From the NCBI GenBank assembly GCA_049593815.1, contig JBAWHL010000531.1, positions 1 through 42,306 of the forward strand: a DNA stretch of 42,306 nucleotides, given 5' to 3'. The position numbers were made by a program, and so were the translations under genes. The first letter of the stretch is position 1; every line of letters starts with the position of its first letter. This document shows, in pieces, positions 1,910-39,149 of the stretch. The stretch is from Ilumatobacteraceae bacterium (lineage in GTDB: Bacteria; Actinomycetota; Acidimicrobiia; Acidimicrobiales; Ilumatobacteraceae). Below the pieces are notes generated by a model, which made no database searches, had not been told where the DNA came from, and saw only the letters and a program-made list of their open reading frames with translations.

Positions 1910-2721
1910 GACGTCGAGTCTCGGCGCTCGCGTGCGCCCCAGACCGTGCCGGCGAGCATGAGGGCGACGCTGACCACGAGGATGGCCGTGGCCAGCACGT
2001 TGACCTCGGGAGGGAACTTCACACGGAAGCTGCCGTTGATGTACAGCGGGAACGTCACCAGGGAGCCGGCGTTGAACAGGGTGATGATGAAGTCGTCGAG
2101 CGAGAGCGCGAACGACAGCAGCGCTGCTGCCAGGATGCCGGGCAGGATCAACGGGAAGGTGACCTTCCAGAAGGTGCGCAGCGGCGATGCTCCGAGATCC
2201 TGGGCGGCCTGCTCCAGGGTCCAGTCGAACCCGCGCACGCGGGCCCGCACGGTCAGTGCCACGAAGCTGACCTGGAACATCACGTGGGCGATCACCACGG
2301 TGGTGAATCCGCGGGTGATGTCCCAGTCGAGGAACAATGTCGCCAACGAGGAGCCGAGCACGATCTCCGGCGTCGTCAACGGGAGCACGAGCAGGAAGTT
2401 CAAGCCGCCGCTGCCCTTGAACTGGTAACGCGCCAATGCGATGGCGATCAGCGAGCCGAGCAGCGTGGCGACGAGGGTCGAGAGCGCGGCGATCTTCAGG
2501 CTCTCGATGAACGCGTTCGTCAACGACTCGTCGCCGAACGGATCGGCCCAGTTGGACAGCGTGAATTCCTGCCACTCGACGTTGTAGTTGCCCTTCGGCT
2601 TGTTGAACGAGAAGGCGACGATCCAGATGATCGGGACGAAGAGGTAGACGAGCGCCAGGCCCGCGTACACGTTCAGCGCGGTTCGGGCGATGCGCCCACC
2701 GGTGGACGACGGGACGCTCAT
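1906..2721 (-). CDS. potC: Spermidine/putrescine ABC transporter permease (PotC-type)
   Basis: 271 aa, 6-TM MetI-like permease. It has an EAA-type loop (LEQAAQDLGASPLRTFWKVTFPLILPG) and sits in the pot operon. Confidence 0.88.
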   Translation of the reverse strand: MSVPSSTGGRIARTALNVYAGLALVYLFVPIIWIVAFSFNKPKGNYNVEWQEFTLSNWADPFGDESLTNAFIESLKIAALSTLVATLLGSLIAIALARYQFKGSGGLNFLLVLPLTTPEIVLGSSLATLFLDWDITRGFTTVVIAHVMFQVSFVALTVRARVRGFDWTLEQAAQDLGASPLRTFWKVTFPLILPGILAAALLSFALSLDDFIITLFNAGSLVTFPLYINGSFRVKFPPEVNVLATAILVVSVALMLAGTVWGARERRDSTS

Positions 2722-2749
2722 GTCAGCGCCCTCATGTCAGCGCCCTCAT
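2718..2749. repeat. 14-bp tandem repeat at the potB/potC junction (TCATGTCAGCGCCC x2 plus a third partial unit)
   Basis: TCAT recurs at 2718, 2732 and 2746 (period 14). On the minus strand each unit reads ATGAGGGCGCTGAC. See findings. Confidence 0.9.
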
Positions 2750-3825
2750 GTCAGGTCTTCCGTGCCGAAGAAGCGGCTGTAGATCACGACGAACACCGTG
2801 ATGATGAACATCAGCACGAACGACATCGCCGATGCGAGCGGCACGTTGTTCTGCACCAGGAACTGGTCCTGGATCGAATTGCCGATCATCGTCGTGTTCG
2901 GGCTGCCGAGGTACAGCGAGTTGACGAAGTCGCCCGCTGCCGGAATGAACGTGAGGAGCGTCCCGGCGAAGATGCCCGGGATCGACAGCGGCAGCACGAC
3001 CTTGGCGAACGCCGACGTCGACGTCGAGTAGAGGTCCTTGGCCGCGTCGACGAGGCGGACGTCGATCTTCTCCAGGCTGACGTAGATCGGCAGCACCATG
3101 AACGGCAGGAAGTTGTACGTGAGGCCGAAGACGACCGCGGCGGGCGTGTTGATCAATCGGCCGTTGTCCATGATGCCCGCCGTCTCGAACAGTCCGGAGA
3201 CGTGGAACGATTCGATCAGTCCCACGATCACCCCTTCGTCGGACAGCAGGCTGCGCCAGGCGATCGTGCGAATCAGGTACGACGTGAAGAACGGGATGAC
3301 CACGAGACCGAGCAGCAGCGTGCGGTACCGGCCGCCGCGGAACGCAATCACGTAGGCCAGCGGATATCCGATGGCGATGGTCAGGGCGGTCGCGATGCCC
3401 GCGTAGAGGAATGCCCGTTGGAACTGCGGTCCGAAGTCGGTGAACGCGTCGACGTAGTTCCCGAAGTTCCAGTCGAAGTCGGCTTCGACGGCGAACCGGC
3501 TGGGCAGTGTCGACAGCGACAGGCGGAGCAGGGTGAACAGCGGCGCCAGGTAGAACAGCGCGAGCCACAACATGCCGGGTTTCAGCAGCCCGTACGGTGC
3601 GATCTTGCGTCGGGTCTCGGGCGTGCCGGTGACCGCGACCACCACGAGCATCAAGACGCTCGCCAGCACGAGCGACAGCGCGACGATCGCGAGTGGGCCC
3701 GTGAGGATGCGGGTGCCGACGGCGACGAGGAGCACCCCGGCGCCGACGAGCGCGCCGAGGCCGAGCAGCTCCGGGCGTCTGACGCCCGTGCGCTCGACCT
3801 TCGGTCGCTCGACGGTGGTGGTCAC
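2746..3825 (-). CDS. potB: Spermidine/putrescine ABC transporter permease (PotB-type)
   Basis: 359 aa with a GTG start at 3825. Polytopic permease with an EAA loop (VDAAKDLYSTSTSAFAKVVLPLSIPG). Its N-terminal extension carries an extra TM segment. Confidence 0.88.
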   Translation of the reverse strand: MTTTVERPKVERTGVRRPELLGLGALVGAGVLLVAVGTRILTGPLAIVALSLVLASVLMLVVVAVTGTPETRRKIAPYGLLKPGMLWLALFYLAPLFTLLRLSLSTLPSRFAVEADFDWNFGNYVDAFTDFGPQFQRAFLYAGIATALTIAIGYPLAYVIAFRGGRYRTLLLGLVVIPFFTSYLIRTIAWRSLLSDEGVIVGLIESFHVSGLFETAGIMDNGRLINTPAAVVFGLTYNFLPFMVLPIYVSLEKIDVRLVDAAKDLYSTSTSAFAKVVLPLSIPGIFAGTLLTFIPAAGDFVNSLYLGSPNTTMIGNSIQDQFLVQNNVPLASAMSFVLMFIITVFVVIYSRFFGTEDLT

Positions 3826-3829
3826 CGCA

Positions 3830-5068
3830 TCAGGCTCCGGTGATCGCAGAGAACGCGGCGTCGTACTCGGCCTCGACCTCCTCGGAGAGCTGGGCGAACG
3901 ACTGGGTGTTCGCCAGCGTGGCCTCGTCGGGGAAGATCAGCGGATCGTTGGCGAGATCGGGGTCGATCTTCTCGACCTCGGCGCGGACACCGGTCACGGG
4001 TGAGACGTAGCCGACCCACGCGGTGATCTGGGCGGCCTGGACCGGGTCGTACACGAAGTCCATCCACTTGGCAGCGGCGTCGATGTTGGTGGCCCCCTTC
4101 GGGATGACCATCGCATCGGCCCACGCCGTCGCACCGGATTCGGGGAACACGAACCGGACCGCAGGATTGTCGCGGGCGATCGCCGCGACGTCGCCCGACC
4201 ATCCGATGGTCACCGCCAGGTTGCCGTTCGACAGGTCGTCGAAGTAGTCGTTGCCGTGGAAGCGTCGGATCTGGCCATCGGCCTTCGCCTGCTCCAACTT
4301 GTCGAACGCGGGTGCCGCTTCGTCGTAGGAGGAGAGTGTGGAGATGTCGATGCCGAGGCTCATGGCGATCACGCCGATCGTGTCGCGCATCTCGGTGAGG
4401 GCCCCGACCTTGCCGGCGAACTCCGGGTCGAAGAGGTCGTCGACGCTGGACAGCTCTCGCCCCGTCACGTCGATGTTGTAGGCGATGCCCGCGAACCCTG
4501 TCTGCCACGGGAGGCTGTACGTGCCGTCGGGATCCCACGCCGCGCCCTGGAGGTCCGGGCGCAGGTTGGCGGCGTTCGGGATCAGGTCGAGCGGGAGTTC
4601 GTCCAGCCAGCCCAGCGTGATCAACCGACCGACGAGCCAGCCGGTCGGGGCGATGATGTCCGGATCGATCGGTTCCCCACGACCGAGCAGGGGCTGGATC
4701 TTGGCGAAGTACTCGTTGTTGTCGTTGAACGCCTCGGTGTAGCGCATGTCGATGCCGGTCGCTTCGGTGAACCGGTCGACGGAGCCGGTGAGGCCGTCCT
4801 CGGTCGGGTCGATGTACGACGGCCAGTTCTCGAAGAAGAGCTCGTTGCCGCCGCCACCGCTGCTCCCACCGTCACCGGACGTCGCGGGGCTCGAGCCGGA
4901 CGAGCCCGACGAATCGCCGTCGCTGCCGCCGCACGCCGCCAGCAGGGCGGGCAGGGACACACCCGCGGCGCCGAGTGCGCCGGCGCGAGCGAGGAGCTGG
5001 CGCCGGGTCAGCGGCCCGCGTGCGCCGAGGAGCGGATTGGTGAATGGGTTGGTTCGGCGAGTGGTCAT
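3830..5068 (-). CDS. potD: Polyamine (spermidine/putrescine) ABC substrate-binding lipoprotein
   Basis: 412 aa. It has a twin-arginine-like signal (TRRQLLARAGALGAAG) followed by the lipobox LLAACGG. The mature part resembles PotD/PotF-family periplasmic binding proteins. Confidence 0.85.
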   Translation of the reverse strand: MTTRRTNPFTNPLLGARGPLTRRQLLARAGALGAAGVSLPALLAACGGSDGDSSGSSGSSPATSGDGGSSGGGGNELFFENWPSYIDPTEDGLTGSVDRFTEATGIDMRYTEAFNDNNEYFAKIQPLLGRGEPIDPDIIAPTGWLVGRLITLGWLDELPLDLIPNAANLRPDLQGAAWDPDGTYSLPWQTGFAGIAYNIDVTGRELSSVDDLFDPEFAGKVGALTEMRDTIGVIAMSLGIDISTLSSYDEAAPAFDKLEQAKADGQIRRFHGNDYFDDLSNGNLAVTIGWSGDVAAIARDNPAVRFVFPESGATAWADAMVIPKGATNIDAAAKWMDFVYDPVQAAQITAWVGYVSPVTGVRAEVEKIDPDLANDPLIFPDEATLANTQSFAQLSEEVEAEYDAAFSAITGA

Positions 5069-7908: not shown

Positions 7909-7939
7909 GTTACAAATGGGGTCTGACCCCTGTTGTAAC
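7909..7939. repeat. Palindromic intergenic element, core GGGGTCTGACCCC with GTTACA/TGTAAC arms
   Basis: GTTACAAATGGGGTC-T-GACCCCTGTTGTAAC; 13 of 15 arm positions pair. It lies between the convergent stops of patD (7864) and the antiporter (7948). Confidence 0.8.
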
Positions 7940-18040: not shown

Positions 18041-19105
18041 ATGGGCTCCGCGCTGACGGCGGGTACGGTTCAGTCCCCGATGTCCGATCAGTCCCCGATG
18101 TCCGAGCCGCCCCCCGACGACCCGTCGATCGTCGTGCCGGTCGACCCGCCGGAAGACGCACCAGCGGCCCCGCCAGCGGTCGGCAAGGTCATGCTGGCGG
18201 TCGACATCGGAGCGACGCACTTCCAAACGGGTCTCGTGACCGCCCGTGGTGCGCTCATCGACCGTGAAGACGCGCCGATCGAACTGGATGTCGGGCCGGA
18301 GCAGCACTACACGGCGCTGGCCGCGCTCGTGACCCAGATGCTCGACCGTGCCGCCGATCGCCATCTGGCGACCGTGGTCGGTATCGGCGCCAGCAGCGGG
18401 GGACATGTGAGCCGTGGGCTCGAGACGGTGACCCCGTTGAGCGTCAGCTCGTGGCGCGACTTCCCGCTCCGCTCGCGCCTCGTCGAGTTGACGGGCATCG
18501 AGTGTCACGGTGACCTGGACGCTCGGGCGCTCGCGCTCGCCGAAGGATGGCTCGGCGCGGCCCAGGGGCAGTCGAACTTCTGCACGATCACCGTCGCCGC
18601 CGGCGTGTCGGGTGGCGTGGTGCTCGACGGTGACCTGCTCGACGGCCACTCGGGGTACGCCGGTCAGCTCGGTCACTTCGTCGTGGAGCCCGGGGGGCGA
18701 CGATGCTCCTGCGGGACGCAGGGGTGTCTCGAGGCCGAGGCATCGGGACAGGCGATCGATGCCATCACGGGCCGCCCCGCCAGTGAGCCGTCGTATCAGA
18801 TCATGCAGCGCACCGGCGGCCTCGTGGGTCGCACCGCAGCATCGATCTGCAACGCCTTCGACCTCTCGCTCGTCGTGGTCGGCGGCAGCATCGCGTTGGG
18901 ATTCGGATCGACGTTCTTCCACGCCGCCCAGATCGCGCTCGACGATCACGCACGCCTGTCGTACAGCCGCGGCGCACGCATCGTGCCGTCCCGCTTGGGC
19001 GAGGAGGGGCCGCTGGTCGGCGCCGGTGCCGTTGGATGGCGTGGCGTCCGTCGTGCTCGTCGCCAGGGCCGCTCAGGTGATCGTCAGCCCCCGAAGGAAC
19101 GGTAG
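18041..19105 (+). CDS. ROK family protein (sugar kinase/regulator-like)
   Basis: In-frame ATG 18041 (alternative 18191) within ORF 17900..19105. LAVDIGATH, the ROK Cys motif GHFVVEPGGRRCSCGTQGCLE, and VVVGGS. Confidence 0.8.
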   Translation: MGSALTAGTVQSPMSDQSPMSEPPPDDPSIVVPVDPPEDAPAAPPAVGKVMLAVDIGATHFQTGLVTARGALIDREDAPIELDVGPEQHYTALAALVTQMLDRAADRHLATVVGIGASSGGHVSRGLETVTPLSVSSWRDFPLRSRLVELTGIECHGDLDARALALAEGWLGAAQGQSNFCTITVAAGVSGGVVLDGDLLDGHSGYAGQLGHFVVEPGGRRCSCGTQGCLEAEASGQAIDAITGRPASEPSYQIMQRTGGLVGRTAASICNAFDLSLVVVGGSIALGFGSTFFHAAQIALDDHARLSYSRGARIVPSRLGEEGPLVGAGAVGWRGVRRARRQGRSGDRQPPKER

Positions 19106-21801: not shown

Positions 21802-21935
21802 TCGTCCTGCCGCCCGACTCGTGCCCGACCGTCGGCGTCGCGCTGGGCCGTTGCGTTGTGGCATCGAGCTGGGCCGTGGCGCTGGGCCGTCGCGCTGTGT
21901 CGATCGGTTGGCGCGGCAGCCGCGAATCGTGGTGG

Positions 21936-23261
21936 TCAGCGTGACGACGTGCGACCGGGCCACGCACGCAGACGCGGGATGATCGGGTCGGCGGTCCGGT
22001 GCCGGAACATCCCCGTCCACACCCCCCAGCCGTAGGCGACATCGGTCGGCGTCGACCTCGGATCTGCCACGACCGACGCCACCGCCAGCCATCGGCAACG
22101 GCGAGAGAACAGCGAGCCGAGGGCAACGAGCGGCCACCAGACGCGCCGCACGGCCGACGCGAGCTGCTGCCCCGCCAGCAGATGTCCACGCATCGCCAAC
22201 TCGAACGACGGACGGCGCGGCAGGCCGGGCAGCTTGCGTTCGAGTGCGGCGGCGCTGCCCACCGCGATCGTGACACCGGTCGCGAGGTGCCCGCCGAGGA
22301 CGGCCAGCCAGGCCGCCGCTGTCCAGCCATTGATCTGCACGGGGGAGAGCGCTCCGGGGTGCCGCAGCGCGAGCGGAGCGGCCGACGTGCCGTAGCCGGC
22401 GTGCTGACGCAGACGTGCCCGCCACGTCGATCGGGGCTCGTGCCACACGCTGATGGACGGATCGAATCGGCATCGCCACCCTGCTTGGTCGAGACGCCAG
22501 ACGAGATCGACGTCCTCGCCGAACCGCAGCCCCGGATCGAACCAGCCGACGGCGTCGAGCGCTTCGACCCGCACCAGCAGCGCGGCACCAGGGACGTAGC
22601 TGACCCGGGTCCCGGCCCGGATGCGCGCCGGTTCCCGACCGAGATCGAGCGGCGACGCGTTCTCGCCGGCAACCCGCGGGGCGACGAGCGCGACCGTCGG
22701 GTCGTCGAAGTGCCACAGCAACGGCTGGACCCAGTCGGCGAGGTCGGGCGGCACGGTCACGTCGGCATCGAGAAACGCCACGAGCGCGGTCCGCACCAGC
22801 GGGCGTGCAGCGTTGCGTGCCGCAGCCGGGCCCGCGTTGGTGTGCAGTCTGGCTGCGGCGCCGGCGAGTGGCGGCGTCGTGCCGTCGTCGATCGTCAGGC
22901 GGCCGTCGTCGTGGACGTCCCGGTGGATGTCCTGGTGGACGTGCTGGTGGATGTCCTGGTGGATGTCCTGGTGGATGTCACCCGCTGACGCTCGGCCGCG
23001 GGAGAGCGGGCCGTACTGCGGGGTGACGACGGTGACGTCCTCGGTGCCGAATCGAGGCGGCCGTCCGGGGTCGGGAAGCGGATGGATCGCCCCGGCGTCG
23101 AGCAGTCGATCGACCAGGTGCGATGCGTCGACGTCGTCGTCGGACTCGAGGCGTCGTGCCACTGCGGTGCCCGCGGCGGTGGTCCTGAAGACGCGCAGCG
23201 GCGAACCGGCGAGGATCAGCGAGCCGTGTCGACTCCACGAGCCATCGCGCCGGAACCGCAC
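21936..23261 (-). CDS. mftF: Mycofactocin-system glycosyltransferase (GT2), MftF-like
   Basis: ORF 21936..23414 (-); the likely start is GTG 23261, 1 nt after the mftE stop. Recalled similarity to mycobacterial MftF along the whole length: AGSPLRVFRTT, AFLDADV, DPTVALVAPRV, VSYVPGAA, GEDVDLVWRL, YGTSAAPLALRHP, SRRCRW, DVAYGWGVW. Confidence 0.78.
   Translation of the reverse strand: MRFRRDGSWSRHGSLILAGSPLRVFRTTAAGTAVARRLESDDDVDASHLVDRLLDAGAIHPLPDPGRPPRFGTEDVTVVTPQYGPLSRGRASAGDIHQDIHQDIHQHVHQDIHRDVHDDGRLTIDDGTTPPLAGAAARLHTNAGPAAARNAARPLVRTALVAFLDADVTVPPDLADWVQPLLWHFDDPTVALVAPRVAGENASPLDLGREPARIRAGTRVSYVPGAALLVRVEALDAVGWFDPGLRFGEDVDLVWRLDQAGWRCRFDPSISVWHEPRSTWRARLRQHAGYGTSAAPLALRHPGALSPVQINGWTAAAWLAVLGGHLATGVTIAVGSAAALERKLPGLPRRPSFELAMRGHLLAGQQLASAVRRVWWPLVALGSLFSRRCRWLAVASVVADPRSTPTDVAYGWGVWTGMFRHRTADPIIPRLRAWPGRTSSR
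22911..22982. repeat. 12-bp tandem repeat x6 (GTGGATGTCCTG-like) inside mftF, encoding (DIHQ)n
   Basis: Units at 22911, 22923, 22935, 22947, 22959 and 22971. The minus-strand in-frame translation is GDIHQDIHQDIHQHVHQDIHRDVHD. Confidence 0.92.
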
Positions 23262-23262
23262 G

Positions 23263-24048
23263 TCAACGCTGGGTGTCGAGGTCGAGTGGCCGCCAACGTT
23301 CGATCTGGTGGACGAGATCCTCGACGAACTGGCCGATGAACTTCTCGCCCTCGCGGCCCGACGCGCCGTCGGGGTCGCCGAGGACGCCGTTCGGGCTGAC
23401 CGCTCGGACGCCACGCGACCGCAGGTCGTCGATCGAGGCGTCCGCGCCCGCCTCGGCGAGCTCGAGTCTGACCAGGCCCGGATCGATCGCCAGCATCATC
23501 GAGGTCTCGATCCGCCCGGCGTGCAGGTCTGCAGGTCCGCCGTCGCGCCGACGGGGCCACGACGGCGTCCAGGCGAGCACCCGTCGACCTTCGGACTCGA
23601 GGGTCGCAGTCGCCACCGACACCGCTGCATGGTTCCCGCCGTGACCGTTCACGAGCACGACGCCGGCAGCCCAGTCGGCACTGCGCACGAGCTCGACGAT
23701 CACCATCGCGGTCGCCTCGGTTCCGATGGAGAGCGTCCCGGGGAATGCTGCGTGTTCGCCCGACGCGGTGACGCTCAGGGTTGGGCCGACCATCAGTCCG
23801 TCGGTGTGATGGATCGCGCGGCCGGCGAGCTCCTCGGCGATGAGCGTGTCGGTGGCGAGCGGCAGATGCGGCCCGTGTTGCTCGGTCGACCCGAGCGGGA
23901 TCAGCAGGATCGGGGCGGGGGTGGAGGCGGCCCCGCCCGGCGGCGACGTCGGCGACTCCCGATCGGTTCCTGCCGGCGACGTCCGTTGCGCAGGCGCGGA
24001 GCGGATGGCGTTGTCGACCTCGGTCCAGGTCGCGTCACCGAGTCGCAT
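23263..24048 (-). CDS. mftE: Mycofactocin maturation peptidase, creatininase family, MftE-like
   Basis: 261 aa. Motifs LGSTEQHGPHLPLATDT, SGEHAAFPGTLSIG, VNGHGGN, HAGRIETS and AVSPNGVLGDP. It lies immediately upstream of the MftF-like GT2. Confidence 0.78.
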   Translation of the reverse strand: MRLGDATWTEVDNAIRSAPAQRTSPAGTDRESPTSPPGGAASTPAPILLIPLGSTEQHGPHLPLATDTLIAEELAGRAIHHTDGLMVGPTLSVTASGEHAAFPGTLSIGTEATAMVIVELVRSADWAAGVVLVNGHGGNHAAVSVATATLESEGRRVLAWTPSWPRRRDGGPADLHAGRIETSMMLAIDPGLVRLELAEAGADASIDDLRSRGVRAVSPNGVLGDPDGASGREGEKFIGQFVEDLVHQIERWRPLDLDTQR

Positions 24049-24057
24049 CGGTGTCGC

Positions 24058-24870
24058 TCACGTGTCGGGGGCGTCGAGATAGCCCCAGTCGCGCAGTTGC
24101 TCGAGGATGCGGCGGGCCGCATCCGGCGGGTCGAGGGTGACGAGTTCGGCGTGGTTGTCGCCGCCACCGACGTCCAGGATCTGGCGGACGCGTTCGAGTG
24201 AGTCGCCACGCGGTGCGGCGACCGCACGGGTGCGCGGGCGATACGGCTGCACCTCGGCCTCGGAGGGCTGTCCGGGTGGACCGGTGACCGTGGCGACCTC
24301 GGCTCGGCGCGTCGCCAACGACGCCGCCATCGGCGCTCGTCGCAGGCGGGCGACCGCTCCCTCCACGGACAACACGGCGGGCACGTCGACATCGAGGATC
24401 TCGCGGCGGCCACCGTCGAGCCGCCGCGTCACCCGGAGCGAGCCGAACGTCGGTCCCTGCGGTTCGACACTGACGAGTCCGAGTGCTTGGGCGCACCCGA
24501 GTTCGTCGGCGATGAAGGCGGGCACCGAGCCGGTGCCGCGGTCGACGGATGCATCACCGCAGAGCACGAGATCGGCGTCGGTTGCGTGCGCCGCGAGCGC
24601 CGCAGCGACGACCCGGCTGTCGAGTTCGGACGAGGCGTCGATGCGCGTGACGTGGTCGGCCCCGACCGCCAGCGCAGTGCGCAGTGCGTCGTCGGCAGCC
24701 GCGGACCCCACGCACACCACGTGGACCGTCGCCGGCGGGTCGGCGGACGCAGCGAGCGTGAGCGCGGTCTCGAGTGCTGCCTCGTCGGCGTTCGAGACAC
24801 CCGACCAGCGCGGGTCGGCGATGCGTTCGGCGTCGAGCGACACCCACTTCCAACAGACGAGGATCTTCAT
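24058..24870 (-). CDS. etfB: Electron transfer flavoprotein beta subunit (EtfB/FixA)
   Basis: 270 aa. MKILVCWKWV..., DEAALETALTLA and LVLCGDASVDRGTGSVPAFIADELG are typical of ETF beta. Confidence 0.9.
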   Translation of the reverse strand: MKILVCWKWVSLDAERIADPRWSGVSNADEAALETALTLAASADPPATVHVVCVGSAAADDALRTALAVGADHVTRIDASSELDSRVVAAALAAHATDADLVLCGDASVDRGTGSVPAFIADELGCAQALGLVSVEPQGPTFGSLRVTRRLDGGRREILDVDVPAVLSVEGAVARLRRAPMAASLATRRAEVATVTGPPGQPSEAEVQPYRPRTRAVAAPRGDSLERVRQILDVGGGDNHAELVTLDPPDAARRILEQLRDWGYLDAPDT

Positions 24871-24951
24871 CGTGGGTGACTGTTCATCGTGCTGGTCGGC
24901 TCATCGTGCTGGTCGGCTCATCGTGTGGGTCGGTTCGTCCTGCGGGCCGTC
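24867..24951. repeat. 17-bp tandem repeat x5 between fixX and etfB (TCATCGTGCTGGTCGGC-like)
   Basis: TCAT occurs at 24867, 24884, 24901 and 24918, followed by a degenerate TCGT at 24935. The fixX stop (TCA) follows at 24952. The period is exactly 17 throughout. Confidence 0.92.
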
Positions 24952-25248
24952 TCAGGACCGCTTGAAGACGACACCGTGGCCGCCCTCGGGATAGGTCCAG
25001 GTGATCGCGCCGTCCTTGTTGCAGACGAGGTAGCAGGTGCCGCACTCGAAGCACTGCTCGTAGTTGAACAGGATGCCGCCGTCGCTGGTCGGGACGAACA
25101 GCTTCGCGGGACACGCCACGACGCACTCGCGCGTCGAGCAGTCGGCGCAGATGCCGTCGTCGACGGTGATGTGCGCGCGCTCGTGCACGTCGAAACGGGT
25201 CGAACCGATGAGATCCTCGAACGACACATCCGGCCAGCGTTCGATCAT
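24952..25248 (-). CDS. fixX: Ferredoxin-like protein FixX
   Basis: 98 aa. CADCSTRECVVACPA...CFECGTCYLVC and the size are typical of FixX. Its ATG overlaps the fixC stop (ATGA). Confidence 0.9.
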   Translation of the reverse strand: MIERWPDVSFEDLIGSTRFDVHERAHITVDDGICADCSTRECVVACPAKLFVPTSDGGILFNYEQCFECGTCYLVCNKDGAITWTYPEGGHGVVFKRS

Positions 25249-26558
25249 CCGAAGCTCCGCATTCCGTCGATGGCGTCGCGAGCGAGATCGCGCATTCTGA
25301 CCCCGGCGCGTTTGCGTTCGTCGTTGAGGATGCGTCGGAGGCCGGGCTTCGGCGTGGGGTTGTCGACGCGGAACATGCGCTCCACCGTATTGGCGATCAT
25401 CTCCGGGTAGAGGTGCTGGACGCGATCGGACAACACGAGCGACGGCGCCCGGCGAAGCTTGCGATGATCACGCAGCACGAACGTCTCGTTCAGACGGCGT
25501 TCGTATCCGGCGAGCCCCGCCTCGGACGGGTCGCCCTTGGCGAGTGCCTCGGCGGCGGCTTCACCGGCGTACATGCCACTCGCCATGGCGAAGTTGACCC
25601 CCTCGAGCCAGATGCCGGCCGCGAGACACAGCGCCGCAGCATCGCCGGCGACGAGCAGGCCGTCGCCGGTCATCTTGGGCATCATCTCCAGGCCGGCTTC
25701 GGGAATCACGTGCGCCGAGTACTCCTTGACCTCACCGCCTTCGACCAGCGGGGCGATGCCCGGATGTGACTTGAGGTTGGCGATGATCTCCTCGGGCCGT
25801 CGCTGCTGAGCAGCCAGCTTGGGGAGCTTCAACACGACGCCGACGGCGAGCGTGTCGAGGTTGGTGTAGACGAACCCGCCGCCGTTCACCCCCGACGTGC
25901 CACCGAGGATCTCGATGTCGACGCCCTCGCGGTCGCGGACGGCGAAGCGCTCGTCGATGACCTCCTTCGGCAGCGCGATCGTCTCTTTGACACCGACGGT
26001 GTAGTTGGCCGCGTCGACCTCGCCGTACAGCCCCGCTTCCTTGGCGAGAAAGCTGTTGACGCCGTCGCAGGCGATCACGATCGGCGCGTGCAGGTCGCCG
26101 TCGGGGCGGTCGGTGCGCACGCCCGTGACCGTGCCCCGCTCGTCGCGCAACAACCCCGTCACCGTCGTCGAACACACGAGGAGCGCGCCGTCGGCCTCGG
26201 CCTTCGATGCCAGCCAATGGTCCCAGTCCGGTCGGTAGGCGGTGGCGCCGTTGTACGGCGGCTTGCCCCAGTCGGCCGATCGGAAGTCGACGGTGAGCGC
26301 CTGGGTGTCGGTGAGGATCATGGTGGACCGACGGGTGATCCACCGCTGGATGGGTGCGTCCTCCCACCACTTCGGATGCAGCTGGTCGAGGATGCGCGGG
26401 TAGACGACGCCGCCGTACATGTTCTTCGATCCGGGGAACGTGCCGCGTTCCAGCAACACGACCGAATGGCCCTTTCGTGCCAGCACGGTGGCGGCTGCCG
26501 CTCCTGCGGGGCCGGCACCGACGACGATCGCGTCGAAGCTGGTCGAGGTGTCATGCAT
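25245..26558 (-). CDS. fixC: FAD-dependent oxidoreductase FixC (ETF:quinone oxidoreductase-like)
   Basis: ORF 25245..26582 (-). The Rossmann motif FDAIVVGAGPAGAAAA is present. ATG 26558 overlaps the etfA stop as ATGCATGA; 26582 is the alternative start. Confidence 0.9.
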   Translation of the reverse strand: MHDTSTSFDAIVVGAGPAGAAAATVLARKGHSVVLLERGTFPGSKNMYGGVVYPRILDQLHPKWWEDAPIQRWITRRSTMILTDTQALTVDFRSADWGKPPYNGATAYRPDWDHWLASKAEADGALLVCSTTVTGLLRDERGTVTGVRTDRPDGDLHAPIVIACDGVNSFLAKEAGLYGEVDAANYTVGVKETIALPKEVIDERFAVRDREGVDIEILGGTSGVNGGGFVYTNLDTLAVGVVLKLPKLAAQQRRPEEIIANLKSHPGIAPLVEGGEVKEYSAHVIPEAGLEMMPKMTGDGLLVAGDAAALCLAAGIWLEGVNFAMASGMYAGEAAAEALAKGDPSEAGLAGYERRLNETFVLRDHRKLRRAPSLVLSDRVQHLYPEMIANTVERMFRVDNPTPKPGLRRILNDERKRAGVRMRDLARDAIDGMRSFG

Positions 26559-27549
26559 CGTCGGCTCCCGTCGCGTCGGCATCCACGGGGTCTGCCGCGG
26601 GTTCGGTCGTCGTGTCGATCTCGGGCTCCGGCTCGTTCGCGAGCAACCGACGCAACTCGGCGAGTGTCTCGTTGGCGTCGCTCACGACCGCGAGGTCCGA
26701 CATCACCATCATCGGGCAGTGCGGGTCGGTGTTGACGCTGATGATGTGTTCGGGGTGCCCGAGTCCGCTCGTGTGCTGCACCGCGCCGCTGACGCCGAAG
26801 GACAGGTACAGCACCGGGTCGACGACGACGCCGGTGGTACCGATCTGGCGGTCGTGGTGCACCCATGACCGGTCGGTGATCACGCGGGTCGCCCCCATCA
26901 CCCCGCCGATCGACACGGCGAACTGGTCGAGTTGGGTGAACCGCTCCTCGGTGTCGAGACCGGCGCCGCCGCCGACGATCCGTCGAGCTTCGGCGAGGTC
27001 CATGGTCTGCACGTCGGGTGGGAGCACGTCGACGACGACCGCGTCGCGACACGCCGCAGACGCCGCGGCATCGGTGCCAGCGCTTCCGGGGTGGACACTG
27101 ATCGTCGGTGGTTCGGCGATGTCGAGCGGCTCGCGCACGCCCGCCTCCAGCGTGGCGACGAACGGACCACCCGGGCGACGCTCGTGGAGTTCCAGTCCGC
27201 CACGACGTGCGAGCCGCACGCGGTGCGCCGTGATCTCGGTTGCCCCCGAGAGCAGCGGGCGGTCGAGCCTCGCCGCGAGTCGGGGAGCGAGGTCGCGCCC
27301 GTCGGGAGTGTGTGGCAACACGACGATCGCCGAGTCGTCGAGGTCTTCGACGATCGGAGCGAGCGTCGCCGCCCATCGGGCGGGCTCCACTGCGCCGAGT
27401 TCGACCAACAGCGCGTCGGTGGCGATGCCGACGACGTCGGCGGTGTCGGTGGCCGACCCGGCGATGATCACGCGACCAGCGCACTCGGCGATCGCCTCGG
27501 CCGCGCCGGCGGGCAGGACGCCGTCACGAACCGGAACCACAGCGATCAT
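26551..27549 (-). CDS. etfA: Electron transfer flavoprotein alpha subunit (EtfA/FixB)
   Basis: In-frame ATG 27549 within ORF 26551..27780 (-), 332 aa. The FAD-binding C-terminal half contains VLYLSFGVSGAVQHTSGL and IISVNTDPHCPM. Confidence 0.9.
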   Translation of the reverse strand: MIAVVPVRDGVLPAGAAEAIAECAGRVIIAGSATDTADVVGIATDALLVELGAVEPARWAATLAPIVEDLDDSAIVVLPHTPDGRDLAPRLAARLDRPLLSGATEITAHRVRLARRGGLELHERRPGGPFVATLEAGVREPLDIAEPPTISVHPGSAGTDAAASAACRDAVVVDVLPPDVQTMDLAEARRIVGGGAGLDTEERFTQLDQFAVSIGGVMGATRVITDRSWVHHDRQIGTTGVVVDPVLYLSFGVSGAVQHTSGLGHPEHIISVNTDPHCPMMVMSDLAVVSDANETLAELRRLLANEPEPEIDTTTEPAADPVDADATGADDA

Positions 27550-28208
27550 TCGTCCAGCGTACGGTCGTCGTCGACAGCGTGTGCAATCTCGTCGTCCGAT
27601 CCGCGCTCGCGGATCCACCGGATGATTTCGACGAGTGCGGTCAACCCCAGCGCGGTGCCGAAGGCCAACCAGAACGCGAGCGAGTGGTCGTCTTCGAAGG
27701 CCTGACCGAAGATGTAGCCGAGCACGGCCGCATAGGTCGCCCAGATGACGCCGGCGACCGCCACCCAGGCGGCGAACCACGCCCGAGGTTGTTCGGTGAG
27801 CCCGGACGACACCGTCAGCAGGGTGCGACCGCCGGGGATGAATCGGGCGGTGATGAGCAGTGGGCCGCCGCGTTTGCGGATCTGGGTGTGGGCCTGTTCG
27901 AAGCGCACGAGTCGTTGTTCCTTGCGCTTCGCCCAGGTCTCGAGGCGGGGACGGAAACGGCGGCCGATCGTGTAGGCCAGGTTGTCGCCGAGGAACGCCC
28001 CGAGCGCGCCCGCCAGGATGACCAGCGCCAGCTGCTGATTGCCCGCGCCCGCAGCGACGCCGCCGGCGATGACGGTCGTCTCACCCGGCACGATCGGCAG
28101 GATCGAGTCGAGCAGGGCGACCGCGAAGATGATCAGCAGGAACCACCAGTTCGACGAGAATTCGTCGAGCCAGTCGGTGAGGTCGGTGATGATGTTGGCC
28201 AGGATCAT
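27546..28208 (-). CDS. DedA family (VTT/SNARE-associated domain) membrane protein
   Basis: 220 aa. LPIVPGETTVIAGG and FLGDNLAYTIGRRF are DedA hallmarks. Its stop overlaps the etfA start (ATGA at 27546-27549). Confidence 0.88.
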   Translation of the reverse strand: MILANIITDLTDWLDEFSSNWWFLLIIFAVALLDSILPIVPGETTVIAGGVAAGAGNQQLALVILAGALGAFLGDNLAYTIGRRFRPRLETWAKRKEQRLVRFEQAHTQIRKRGGPLLITARFIPGGRTLLTVSSGLTEQPRAWFAAWVAVAGVIWATYAAVLGYIFGQAFEDDHSLAFWLAFGTALGLTALVEIIRWIRERGSDDEIAHAVDDDRTLDE

Positions 28209-30805: not shown

Positions 30806-30860
30806 GTTCGGGGTCTGCCCCGACTCGTGACAGGGGGTCGCGCCTGAGGTCTGACCCCTG
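30806..30860. repeat. Compound/degenerate copies of the GGGGTC..GACCCC palindromic element
   Basis: GTTCGGGGTCTGCCCCGAC (30806-30824; stem TCGGGG/CCCCGA) and CAGGGGGTC-gcgcctgag-GTCTGACCCCTG (30831-30860). These lie in the 88-nt gap between the OYE stop and the GH3 start. Confidence 0.6.
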
Positions 30861-32852: not shown

Positions 32853-32922
32853 GACGCCGCCAACGGTACCCGCCGCGGTCCTCCCCGGCCCTCCCCGGTC
32901 CGCCCCGCCACCGCGACGCCAA

Positions 32923-32957
32923 GTGTTACATCAGGGGTCAGACCCCTGATGTAACAC
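32923..32957. repeat. Perfect 35-bp palindrome GTGTTACATCAGGGGTC-A-GACCCCTGATGTAACAC
   Basis: The 17-bp arms are exact reverse complements around A32940. It lies in the divergent region between the OYE (start 32852, -) and SDR (start 33043, +) genes. Confidence 0.95.
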
Positions 32958-37357: not shown

Positions 37358-37558
37358 ATGCGAGTACACCTCGATGCAGAGAAGTGCCAGGGCCACAACC
37401 GTTGTTACGCGTTGGCGCCGGAGTTGTTCGACGTCGACGACTACGGCCAGGCCGTGCTGCTCGTCGAGGGCGACGTGCCCGCCGAGCTGCAGGACAAGGC
37501 GCGGCTCGCCGCCGCGAACTGCCCCGAGTACGCGATCACCATCACGGAGAACGGATGA
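37358..37558 (+). CDS. 3Fe-4S-type ferredoxin (P450 redox partner)
   Basis: 66 aa: MRVHLDAEKCQGHNRCYALAPELF...ANCPEYAI (CxxHxxC...CP pattern). It lies directly upstream of the P450 gene. Confidence 0.85.
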   Translation: MRVHLDAEKCQGHNRCYALAPELFDVDDYGQAVLLVEGDVPAELQDKARLAAANCPEYAITITENG

Positions 37559-37559
37559 C

Positions 37560-38957
37560 ATGACCGACATCGTCGAGAACGACACGATCCAGGGCGACAC
37601 CGACGACGCGCAGGTCCAGACCACGCGCATCGATGAAGCGACCGGCAACAAGATCATCACGGTCGAACGCGACGGCGAGAGCTACGACGTCGTCATCGGC
37701 AGTGGCCCCGAAGGCACCGACATCTGGCAGCGCGTCCCGTACGACGCCGCCGACTACGGCCCGGTGTCCGACTTCGCCGCCGACTTCGATCACGCGGATC
37801 CCGCCTACAACCCCAACGCCCCCGAGGTGTGGAAGGAACTGCGCGAGTCGGGCTGCCCGGTCGCGCACTCCGAGCGCTACGGCGGCATGTGGGCGCCATT
37901 GACGCACGACACCGTCCACGAGGTCGCCTACGACACCGACAACTTCACCAGTCGCAGCGTGATCGTCAGCGTCGGCCGCCCCGGCGATCTCGCGATCCCG
38001 GCACCGATCGGTGGCGCCCCGCCGATCACCAGCGACCCACCGTTCCACAACATCGCTCGGCGCCTGCTGCTGCCGCCGTTCGCGCCGAAGAAGATCGAGC
38101 CGTGGGAGCCCGAGGTCAAGCGGCTCTGCAACGACCTGCTCGATCGCATGGGTGACATCACCCCTGGCGAGACCGTCGTCGACGCAGCCATCCAGTACGC
38201 GCAGAACATTCCGGTCAACGTGATCGCCCGCATGCTCGGTTTCCCCGAGAAGGACGAGGCGCTGTTCCGCAAGTTCGTGCACGACGCGCTGGAGACGATC
38301 AACGAGGAGCCGGGGACACGCGGCGGCCTCGACGAGCTCGGTGCCTACATCGATCGCCAGGTCAAGGAGCACCGCGAGAACCCTCGCGACGACCTCACGA
38401 GCTACCTGTGCGATGTCGAACTCGAGGGCAACAAGCTGTCCGACGATCACGTCGCCGGTTCGATCATCCTGTTGCTCATCGCCGGCATCGACACCACCTG
38501 GTCGGCGATCGGTTCGTCGATCTGGCACCTGGCGCAGCATCCCGAAGATCATCAGCGTCTGCTCGACGATCCCGAGATCATGACCTTCGCGCTGGAGGAG
38601 TTCCTCCGCTCGTATGCGCCGGTCACCATGGCTCGTCTCGTCGCCAAGGACAACGACTTCCACGGTTGTCCGATGAAGAAGGACGATTGGGCGCTCCTGC
38701 CCGTCCCGGCCGCCAACCGCGACCCGAAGAAGTTCGAGGACCCCGACACCTTCATCGTCGACCGCGAGGAGAACCGCCACGCGGCGTTCGGTCTCGGCAT
38801 TCACCGATGCCTCGGATCGAACCTGGCCCGACTCGAGCTGAAGGTTGCCATCGAAGAGTTCATCAAGCGCTTCCCGCGCTTCGAACTCGCCGGTGACGTC
38901 CGCTGGAGCGTCGGGCAGATCCGTGGACCGCGCGAGCTGCCGGTCCGCATCCTCTAA
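37560..38957 (+). CDS. Cytochrome P450
   Basis: In-frame ATG 37560 within ORF 37374..38957. I-helix AGIDTT, EEFLR (ExxR), and the heme loop FGLGIHRCLGSNLA. Confidence 0.9.
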   Translation: MTDIVENDTIQGDTDDAQVQTTRIDEATGNKIITVERDGESYDVVIGSGPEGTDIWQRVPYDAADYGPVSDFAADFDHADPAYNPNAPEVWKELRESGCPVAHSERYGGMWAPLTHDTVHEVAYDTDNFTSRSVIVSVGRPGDLAIPAPIGGAPPITSDPPFHNIARRLLLPPFAPKKIEPWEPEVKRLCNDLLDRMGDITPGETVVDAAIQYAQNIPVNVIARMLGFPEKDEALFRKFVHDALETINEEPGTRGGLDELGAYIDRQVKEHRENPRDDLTSYLCDVELEGNKLSDDHVAGSIILLLIAGIDTTWSAIGSSIWHLAQHPEDHQRLLDDPEIMTFALEEFLRSYAPVTMARLVAKDNDFHGCPMKKDDWALLPVPAANRDPKKFEDPDTFIVDREENRHAAFGLGIHRCLGSNLARLELKVAIEEFIKRFPRFELAGDVRWSVGQIRGPRELPVRIL

Positions 38958-38994: not shown

Positions 38995-39033
38995 GGCCAT
39001 CACGTCGGGGGTCAGACCCCGAACGTGATGGCC
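38995..39033. repeat. Palindromic intergenic element, core GGGGGTCAGACCCC with CATCACGT/ACGTGATG arms
   Basis: GGCCATCACGTCGGGGGTC-A-GACCCCGAACGTGATGGCC; 17 of 19 arm positions pair. It lies between the convergent P450 and crcB stops. Confidence 0.85.
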
Positions 39034-39059
39034 GTGGTCGTTTTCGGGGTGTTCTCAGC

Positions 39060-39149
39060 CCGGTCTCCTGCAGCGCTACGTCGTACAGCGCTGTGTCCTG
39101 CAGTCCGGTCTCCTGCAGCGCTCTGCGTCGTGCAGCGCGGTGTCGTCAG
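39060..39149. repeat. Imperfect ~45-bp direct repeat x2 (each starts CCGGTCTCCTGCAGCGCT)
   Basis: An identical 18-mer occurs at 39060 and 39105. The remainder of each unit is similar, with internal AGCGCT-centred inverted repeats. The second unit runs into the crcB stop (39146). Confidence 0.8.

Follow-up and report, generated by a model that had tools for sequence, protein, structure and literature searches.

A 17-nucleotide tandem repeat at the fixX-etfB junction of an Ilumatobacteraceae bacterium, and the 3n+2 spacing of duplicated gene junctions

The 42,306-nucleotide contig JBAWHL010000531.1 (GenBank assembly GCA_049593815.1, an uncultured soil Ilumatobacteraceae bacterium), hereafter the window, carries on its minus strand an operon in which a fixX-like ferredoxin gene is separated from mft-etfB, encoding the mycofactocin-associated electron transfer flavoprotein (ETF) beta subunit, by an array of 17-nt repeats. 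Most repeat units contain a start codon, and the array forms a chain of mini open reading frames (mini-ORFs) ending on the etfB start codon. The question raised by this locus is whether such start codons are read by ribosomes, or are an accident of repeat slippage. The array is interpreted here as a local tandem multiplication of the mft-etfB start module, in a setting in which duplications survive only if compatible with a ribosome relay. We assign to this reading a probability of about 0.65. The features of the junction are the following (peptides are given without the stop).

24952-25248, minus strand: fixX-like ferredoxin gene, 98 amino acids; stop TGA at 24954-24952, ATG overlapping the fixC stop (ATGA, 25248-25245)
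24935-24951, minus strand: array unit 1, degenerate, GACGGCCCGCAGGACGA, with ACGA in place of ATGA
24918-24934, minus strand: array unit 2, ACCGACCCACACGATGA, holding the first ATG (24921)
24901-24917, minus strand: array unit 3, GCCGACCAGCACGATGA
24884-24900, minus strand: array unit 4, GCCGACCAGCACGATGA, same letters as unit 3
24867-24883, minus strand: array unit 5, ACAGTCACCCACGATGA, whose ATG serves as start codon of etfB (24870-24868)
24901-24921, minus strand: mini-ORF 1, ATG AGC CGA CCA GCA CGA TGA (MSRPAR)
24884-24904, minus strand: mini-ORF 2 (MSRPAR), ATG overlapping the stop of mini-ORF 1
24867-24887, minus strand: mini-ORF 3 (MNSHPR), TGA overlapping the etfB ATG
24058-24870, minus strand: mft-etfB, 270 amino acids (TIGR04503, 213.6 bits, cut-off 200)

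Directly past the fixX stop come the five units, arranged head to tail, and ATGA closes each of units 2-5. Three successive ATGA overlaps are formed (24904-24901, 24887-24884 and 24870-24867), and each mini-ORF is made of six codons. Because unit 1 reads ACGA, no overlap ties the chain to fixX: the first array ATG lies 30 nt from the fixX stop, in a spacer totalling 81 nt. No Shine-Dalgarno (SD) sequence is found at the four array ATGs. Their anti-SD duplexes (-1.6 to -3.5 kcal/mol) are the weakest of all the junctions compared, the same junction in relatives ranging from -4.2 to -13.4 kcal/mol. All the sequence claims of a preliminary description of this DNA (units, coordinates, the three mini-ORFs, the ATGA overlaps, the lack of SD sequences) were reproduced. 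It rightly remarked that all ATGA overlaps stay in register because the 17-nt unit is 2 mod 3, and this length is the key variable.

Tandem Repeats Finder reports the segment 24884-24933 (period 17, 2.9 copies, 93% matches, score 86), along with a looser 34-nt row extending to 24954. Identity between units spans 9 to 17 of 17 positions; divergence is greatest in units 1 and 5, unit 1 being the most degenerate. Units 3 and 4 are identical, and thus represent the most recent duplication. A search of the 42-kb window for the 17-mer, allowing up to 3 mismatches, detected only the array and two chance-like matches lacking ATGA. Chains of at least two ATG-initiated mini-ORFs (up to 12 codons) occur twice in the window, and correspond exactly to this array and to another, described below, located between two permease genes. 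First-order Markov simulations of the window sequence (n = 300) gave a mean of 0.44 chains, at least two being reached in 25/300. The bare chain motif is therefore only mildly unusual; what is above chance is that the chains are tandem repeats, placed exactly on gene junctions and ending on real start codons. A count of generic chains (ATG/GTG/TTG starts, up to 30 codons) was abandoned in favour of this ATG-only count, as it proved useless at 69% G+C (57 seen vs 131 expected).

The array is not an assembly artefact, an outcome that the preliminary description had listed as refuting its reading. Logan contigs from runs X1 and X2 of one study (record 2 and record 5, respectively) span it without gaps, with five units each time; X1 is a soil metagenome in which 85% of the words sampled from the region are present, and X2 is also positive. 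The region lacks any repeated 31-mer, and copy number is therefore resolved by a k=31 assembler. No close relative is present in the databases. EtfB identity reaches at most 68% in a genome scan and 72% among 5.8 billion proteins, a metagenome scan returned two loci, and the only close relative is a 151-nt contig of run X1 (record 3). The flanks of this contig are ~93% identical to the window, and the segment 24875-24944 is replaced by 19 nt. The spacer reconstructed for this sister population is a pair of 17-nt units and nothing else, namely GACGGCCGACACGATGA and GCAGCCGGGCACGATGA. Each of them ends in ATGA, also at the unit 1 position, and a single mini-ORF, MSSRAR, starts 13 nt after the fixX stop. 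The two alleles (81-nt vs 30-nt spacer) differ by 3 x 17 = 51 nt, i.e. by three whole units. Copy number in relatives, which had been proposed as a check, thus varies from five to two in co-occurring populations, the spacers of all other relatives being short. Near-identical head-to-tail units and a length polymorphism in whole units characterize a slipped-strand variable number tandem repeat (VNTR), and the array is one of them.

Duplicated junctions were found at other places, both in the window and in related Ilumatobacteraceae loci (designated by L numbers).

2717-2754, minus strand: relay between permease genes 1 and 2 of a spermidine/putrescine-type ATP-binding cassette (ABC) transporter; perfect 14-nt repeat, TGACATGAGGGCGC twice plus a partial copy
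3822-3832, minus strand: mini-ORF MR, a stepping stone from the solute-binding-protein gene to permease gene 1 (TGATG, CGG, TGA over the GTG start at 3825)
37555-37563, plus strand: 5-nt junction duplication ATGACATGAC (ATGAC ATGAC, in the context GG...C), ferredoxin-like gene / cytochrome P450 gene
L011, 2562-2591: fixC / fixX, pair GG(G/A)TGAT x2 spaced by 26 nt
L016, 18723-18765: 14-nt repeat, 3.1 copies; triplicated 10-nt overlapping junction GTGGATCTGA, Ala_racemase_N-like / DUF418 genes
L018: fixX / etfB, 29 nt, CGTGAG x2
L019: permease 2 / next gene, 14 nt, GCGTGATC x2
L024: permease 2 / next gene, 20 nt, GCATGAG x2

Between the permease genes, two MRALT mini-ORFs (2749-2732 and 2735-2718) connect by ATGA overlaps the permease 1 stop (2748-2746) to the permease 2 ATG (2721). 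The 14-nt array is present in an X1 contig, and the 14-mer is found nowhere else in the window. In relatives at ~90% identity (L019/L021) the same junction hosts one 9-codon mini-ORF, with ATGAs 26 nt apart and CTGGCATGA at both ends. A plain GTGA overlap, likely the ancestral permease junction, is found in a relative at 80% identity and in the more distant L025-L034 lineage. Upstream of the P450 gene, the mini-ORF ATG ACA TGA (MT) overlaps on one side the ferredoxin-like stop (37556-37558) and on the other, with its TGA, the P450 ATG (37560); the ferredoxin-like gene (66 amino acids, 37359-37558) has no Pfam match. The L016 array contains the chained mini-ORFs VDLSEWF and VVLSEWI, and the corresponding junction is a plain 10-nt (or 4-nt) overlap in the window and in the other relatives. 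The fixX-etfB junction of L011, whose EtfB is the closest to that of the window (72% identity), reads TCGTGAAGATCGGGTCATGAAGATCGCT (2881-2898), a 14-nt duplication, (G/A)TGAAGATCG x2, in which the mini-ORF VKIGS copies the EtfB N-terminus.

The spacings of the duplicated junctions are 5, 14, 14, 14, 14, 17, 20, 26, 26 and 29 nt. All are 3n+2, and none is 3n+1. Independently of gene callers, a census was made of (A/G/T)TGA pairs in which the first member ends, and the second opens, a long ORF of coding-like composition. Ten pairs lie at a distance of 2 mod 3, among them an internal codon of the L007 etfB gene, which is a false positive. The two rows at 1 mod 3 are not real, as one is an antisense artefact and the other a 2x14 array counted end to end. 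The eight rows at 0 mod 3 are in-frame internal codons, and are uninformative. About nine independent junction events are therefore 3n+2 against none 3n+1 (binomial probability 0.002). Relatives with unit lengths other than 2 mod 3, which the preliminary description had indicated as the observation that would speak against a relay, were not found among these ~9 duplications. Where arrays lack start codons, their periods are unconstrained (10, 13, 19 and 47 nt). The absence of 3n+1 duplications at junctions is the best available evidence on the matter, and argues that the extra start codons in spacers are read by ribosomes, and that the array is not strictly neutral.

The fixX-etfB junctions of 17 Ilumatobacteraceae point in the same direction, and are suggestive, not decisive. 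Spacers are 1-36 nt long, lack the 17-nt repeat, and the etfB start is mostly GTGA. In 11/17 a single bridging mini-ORF (3-5 sense codons; MRAT, MQPS, VQSS, VTRLL, VMSPS, VAAS and others) starts 6-14 nt past the fixX stop and ends on the etfB start. Taken together, the spacers contain 13 start codons, all 13 in the relay frame and none out of frame.

The sequence of events compatible with these data is as follows. Slipped-strand or unequal-exchange duplication would have multiplied the etfB start module, giving rise to a small VNTR. As the unit ends in ATGA and is 3n+2 long, each copy is predicted to form a 6-codon ORF having a stop that overlaps the next start. A ribosome starting on any copy would terminate atop the next ATG, where it could reinitiate, and the relay may in this way pass ribosomes down to etfB. 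A 3n+1 unit would instead direct ribosomes into etfB out of frame, and an 81-nt untranslated gap devoid of a relay would lose them. Reinitiation is best at -4 or -1 overlaps. In Escherichia coli, termination-reinitiation is reduced by 80-100% at 38 nt, and is described in the abstract of the same study as almost abolished at ~20 nt (PMC10666635); a relay-less gap of 81 nt would consequently uncouple etfB from fixX. Junction duplications arise repeatedly in Ilumatobacteraceae, and selection would remove the 3n+1 copies.

The preliminary description had proposed either the neutral slippage duplication of an ancestral ATGA junction or a termination-reinitiation relay setting the yield of etfB and possibly of mftE/F. 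Of the former, local duplication is upheld by the short, unrepeated spacers of relatives, by a unit that recurs nowhere else in the window, by identical units and by the 5 vs 2 unit alleles. What was multiplied is, in contrast, the etfB start module rather than an ancestral ATGA junction, as 11/17 relatives already have a single bridging mini-ORF, and strict neutrality does not fit spacings that are only 3n+2. The most fitting view of the array is that of a strain-variable insertion which is tolerated and keeps some coupling, not of a purpose-built regulator, though a regulatory dial is possible. It probably lowers EtfB synthesis somewhat: some loss is likely, because the first step is weak (30 nt, no SD, ACGA in unit 1).

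Several points weigh against the relay-compatible multiplication of the start module. At the 30-nt distance of the first step, reinitiation is already poor in the species tested (PMC10666635). Removal of the SD in E. coli usually cuts reinitiation by 60-90%, though variably (PMC6728339), and the array units are SD-less. The 3n+2 sample is small, with ~9 events drawn from ~250 kb of related genomes and curated visually, and 3n duplications go unseen because they read as N-terminal extensions. The probability that a random 20-nt spacer contains a bridging ORF is ~0.22, and the 17 loci represent only ~6 lineages; once shared ancestry is allowed for, bridging mini-ORFs do not clearly exceed chance in frequency. 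In addition, the mini-ORF start in relatives overlaps a purine-rich GAG(A/G)TG, a possible weak SD (in L012 GAGGTG, -11.0 kcal/mol), and L014 has at this place GGGGAGG (-13.4 kcal/mol) and no mini-ORF. Peptides (MSRPAR, MSSRAR, MRAT, VTRLL, VMSPS, MQPS, VKIGS) are not conserved, and hence nothing hints at a peptide function.

The SD-like alternative and shared ancestry weaken the conserved mini-ORF of relatives as a functional proof, and it was set aside as such. A null model based on shuffled spacers (9 bridging mini-ORFs seen vs 9.0 expected) was also discarded. Such a model carries no information, as any two NTGA ends lying at the right distance bridge automatically, and the distance-mod-3 census described above took its place.

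The relay must be weighed against neutral, microsatellite-like slippage, in which the mini-ORFs are unread, etfB initiates independently and the 3n+2 length is coincidental. This is unlikely, though several observations are in keeping with it: the spacer evolves fast and its peptides are not conserved, close populations differ in copy number, other non-coding short-period repeats (10, 13, 47) are frequent in the window, the bare chain motif exceeds chance only mildly, and the chain is broken at its first link. It leaves unaccounted for, however, that about 9/9 independent junction duplications are 3n+2 and none 3n+1, a restriction not shared by repeats without start codons, and that every start codon in the spacers of the 17 relatives is in the relay frame. 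Moreover, etfB has neither an SD nor a promoter motif, and a route to independent initiation is not evident.

Less probable still is an adaptive rheostat, in which selection acts on copy number to adjust the EtfB:FixX (or EtfB:EtfA) ratio, together with MftE/F levels, each termination-reinitiation step attenuating translation by a fixed factor, and slippage providing reversible tuning. Co-occurring populations do carry 5 vs 2 units, but these are two alleles only, known from contigs of populations ~7% diverged. The relay architecture recurs at multi-subunit systems, e.g. ABC permeases, and most relatives nevertheless do without the repeat. The operon encodes subunits of heteromeric complexes and its other junctions are clean ATGA overlaps, so that fixX-etfB would be the one junction at which stoichiometry could be adjusted; here, however, the ATG of unit 1 is lost and divergence affects units 1, 2 and 5, a picture that resembles decay and not maintenance.

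It is highly improbable that the direct repeats act as a DNA or RNA regulatory site, i.e. as a regulator-binding array, an internal promoter or a structured RNA. Tandem direct repeats can bind regulators, and the senX3-regX3 spacer, which contains mycobacterial interspersed repetitive units (MIRUs), shows promoter activity (PMC4213456). The spacer examined here, in contrast, contains no sigma-70-like promoter and no terminator-like site, nor TANNNT on either strand. No Rfam family was found in the window or in the spacer, even at E <= 1, and RNA folding of the spacer is no better than that of shuffled sequences (z = -1.0). The array is not a conserved operator, because the repeat is absent from 17/17 relatives, and a regulatory site would leave the 3n+2 rule unexplained. 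A leader peptide or attenuator upstream ORF was likewise rejected, since the array is intercistronic, the peptides vary and folding does not exceed that of shuffles. That the assembler inflated or created the repeat number is hardly conceivable: assemblers are known to err at short tandem repeats, but the X1 and X2 assemblies agree without gaps, no 31-mer is repeated in the region, and the 14-nt permease array was similarly rebuilt in an X1 contig.

Among known systems, MIRUs are the nearest analogue. In the passage of PMC12548453 that cites Supply et al. 1997, MIRUs are said to sit at start codons, their internal ORF being coupled to the gene at -4, and tandem MIRU units of 77 and 53 bp make up the senX3-regX3 spacer of Mycobacterium tuberculosis (PMC4213456). 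As far as that passage describes them, the likeness is close: the array is intergenic within an operon and oriented as the genes, and the stop of the unit ORF overlaps the next start at -4 (PMC12548453). Copy number varies between strains, as do the 5 vs 2 units of the array; the published 77- and 53-bp units are also 3n+2, and the host is in both cases an actinobacterium. There are also differences. MIRU units (roughly 40-100 bp) are 4-5 times longer; the array units are of 17 nt, and those of all the junctions described here of 5-29 nt. MIRUs are dispersed, apparently mobile and found at many loci, whereas the repeat described here is made from the local junction and is unique in the 42 kb searched. 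Promoter activity has been reported for MIRU spacers, and no promoter motif is present in the array. Finally, the host belongs to Acidimicrobiia (Ilumatobacteraceae, judging from the nearest relatives) and not to Mycobacterium. A mobile or dispersed repeat of MIRU type was rejected for the window, as the 17-mer and the 14-mer are found only in their own arrays. The array works like a MIRU array and is not a member of the MIRU family, from which published MIRU descriptions set it apart.

Each link of the array is a classic -4 overlap of the kind studied in termination-reinitiation coupling (Huber et al. 2019, PMC6728339; 2023, PMC10666635), and the genes involved encode subunits of heteromeric complexes, a class enriched in such overlaps. 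Known cases, however, join two real genes, whereas here 1-3 SD-less, non-coding mini-ORFs (2-9 codons) are interposed, and the fixX stop is 30 nt from the first ATG (13 nt in the sister population, 6-14 nt in relatives). Short delivery ORFs and bicistronic designs (PMC12548453) similarly feature an ORF which has no peptide function and brings the ribosome to a downstream start; they are single and have their own strong SD, while the array ORFs are SD-less, chained and born from duplication. With ordinary VNTRs and microsatellites the array shares head-to-tail copies, an identical centre, degenerate outer units and a copy-number difference. It differs in that the unit holds a start and a stop codon in fixed register, and in that lengths are 3n+2 across the family.

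The operon reads, on the minus strand, DedA-like (27546-28208), mft-etfA, fixC, fixX, the array, mft-etfB, mftE and an mftF-like glycosyltransferase gene. The etfA-fixC-fixX-etfB synteny is kept in all relatives, the nearest of which are Ilumatobacteraceae (Acidimicrobiia) metagenome-assembled genomes. The DedA/etfA, etfA/fixC and fixC/fixX junctions are plain ATGA overlaps, and a gap of 9 nt separates etfB from mftE. The genes flanking the array are probably co-transcribed, given that promoter, terminator and TANNNT motifs are missing from the spacer. Among the RNA runs searched, none contained the stretch. Of the gene names previously given, those of mft_etfB, mft_etfA (NF038209, 336.5, cut-off 240) and MftE (TIGR03964, 233.8, cut-off 172) reach curated NCBIfam cut-offs. 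The MftF model scores 264.4, under its cut-off of 280, and FixC is similarly under its equivalog cut-off. The fixX-like protein matches Pfam Fer4_9 (1.7e-08) and NCBIfam FixX NF011993 at 50.7 bits, under the equivalog cut-off of 166. As these scores are below cut-off, the names MftF, FixX and FixC rest on domain content and conserved synteny. The EtfB N-terminus, MKILVCWKWV, is found at the start of 106/120 homologues. N-terminal extensions of homologues were considered as possible signs of arrays and dismissed, being few and looking like gene-caller overruns into fixX.

The mftE and mftF-like genes lie directly behind the ETF/Fix genes (21936-28208). A 12-nt repeat (5.8 copies, 89% matches) is found within the mftF-like coding region (22911-22979), where each unit corresponds in frame to four codons. 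A non-coding 13-nt repeat (4.8 copies) lies 3' of mftF (21836-21897), and has neither start codons nor a mini-ORF chain.

Other repeats were noted in the window and in relatives. An exact 18-nt duplication (18070-18105, plus strand) encodes QSPMSD QSPMSE near the N-terminus of an ORF, with an ATG in each copy, and may exemplify a hidden class of in-frame (3n) duplications of start regions. A 10-nt tandem repeat (32876-32907, minus strand), reading GGGGCGGACC GGGGAGGGCC GGGGAGGACC, triples the SD-like GGGGAGG in front of an Oxidored_FMN/FAD oxidoreductase gene, some 20-50 nt upstream of its ATG (32852), and is a duplication of an initiation region without start codons. A perfect 19-nt repeat (TTCGGGGGTGTGATGTGGG, 3.1 copies) is located in L017 (16460-16517) in a convergent intergenic region, away from any gene start. 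A non-coding 47-nt repeat (2.2 copies, 39048-39149), similarly devoid of start codons and mini-ORF chains, lies beside a palindrome. Intergenic palindromes built around GGGGTC(A/T)GACCCC, such as GTGTTACATCAGGGGTCAGACCCCTGATGTAACAC, are found at 7918-7930, 32934-32946, 39008-39020 and, with one mismatch, 30846-30858 (4 matches in the window vs 0.15 expected), and also in L016 at about 4090-4130. They look like a family of REP-like elements or hairpin terminators.

A broader reading may be put forward tentatively, and is doubtful as a whole: 3n+2 junction duplications might form a general, undescribed class of bacterial junction VNTRs, in which SD-less mini-ORF chains act as ribosome relays bridging intercistronic gaps and copy number is a heritable, slippage-adjustable dial for stoichiometry, MIRUs being one mobile special case. 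Should the 3n+2 rule fail at scale, the array would be an ordinary strain-variable microsatellite. If upheld, the rule would give a mechanistic rationale for the length of the senX3-regX3 MIRUs (77 and 53 bp). Start codons in spacers can be taken by gene callers for the gene start, which is of concern for annotation, and for engineering the junctions described are multi-step relay designs found in nature. A 3n+2 rule upheld at scale would provide comparative evidence, obtained without culture or ribosome profiling, that in a little-studied actinobacterial class ribosomes reinitiate at SD-less starts placed on stop codons. It would also reveal a route by which overlapping genes may gain spacers while coupling is kept, the junction being duplicated and the in-register copies retained.

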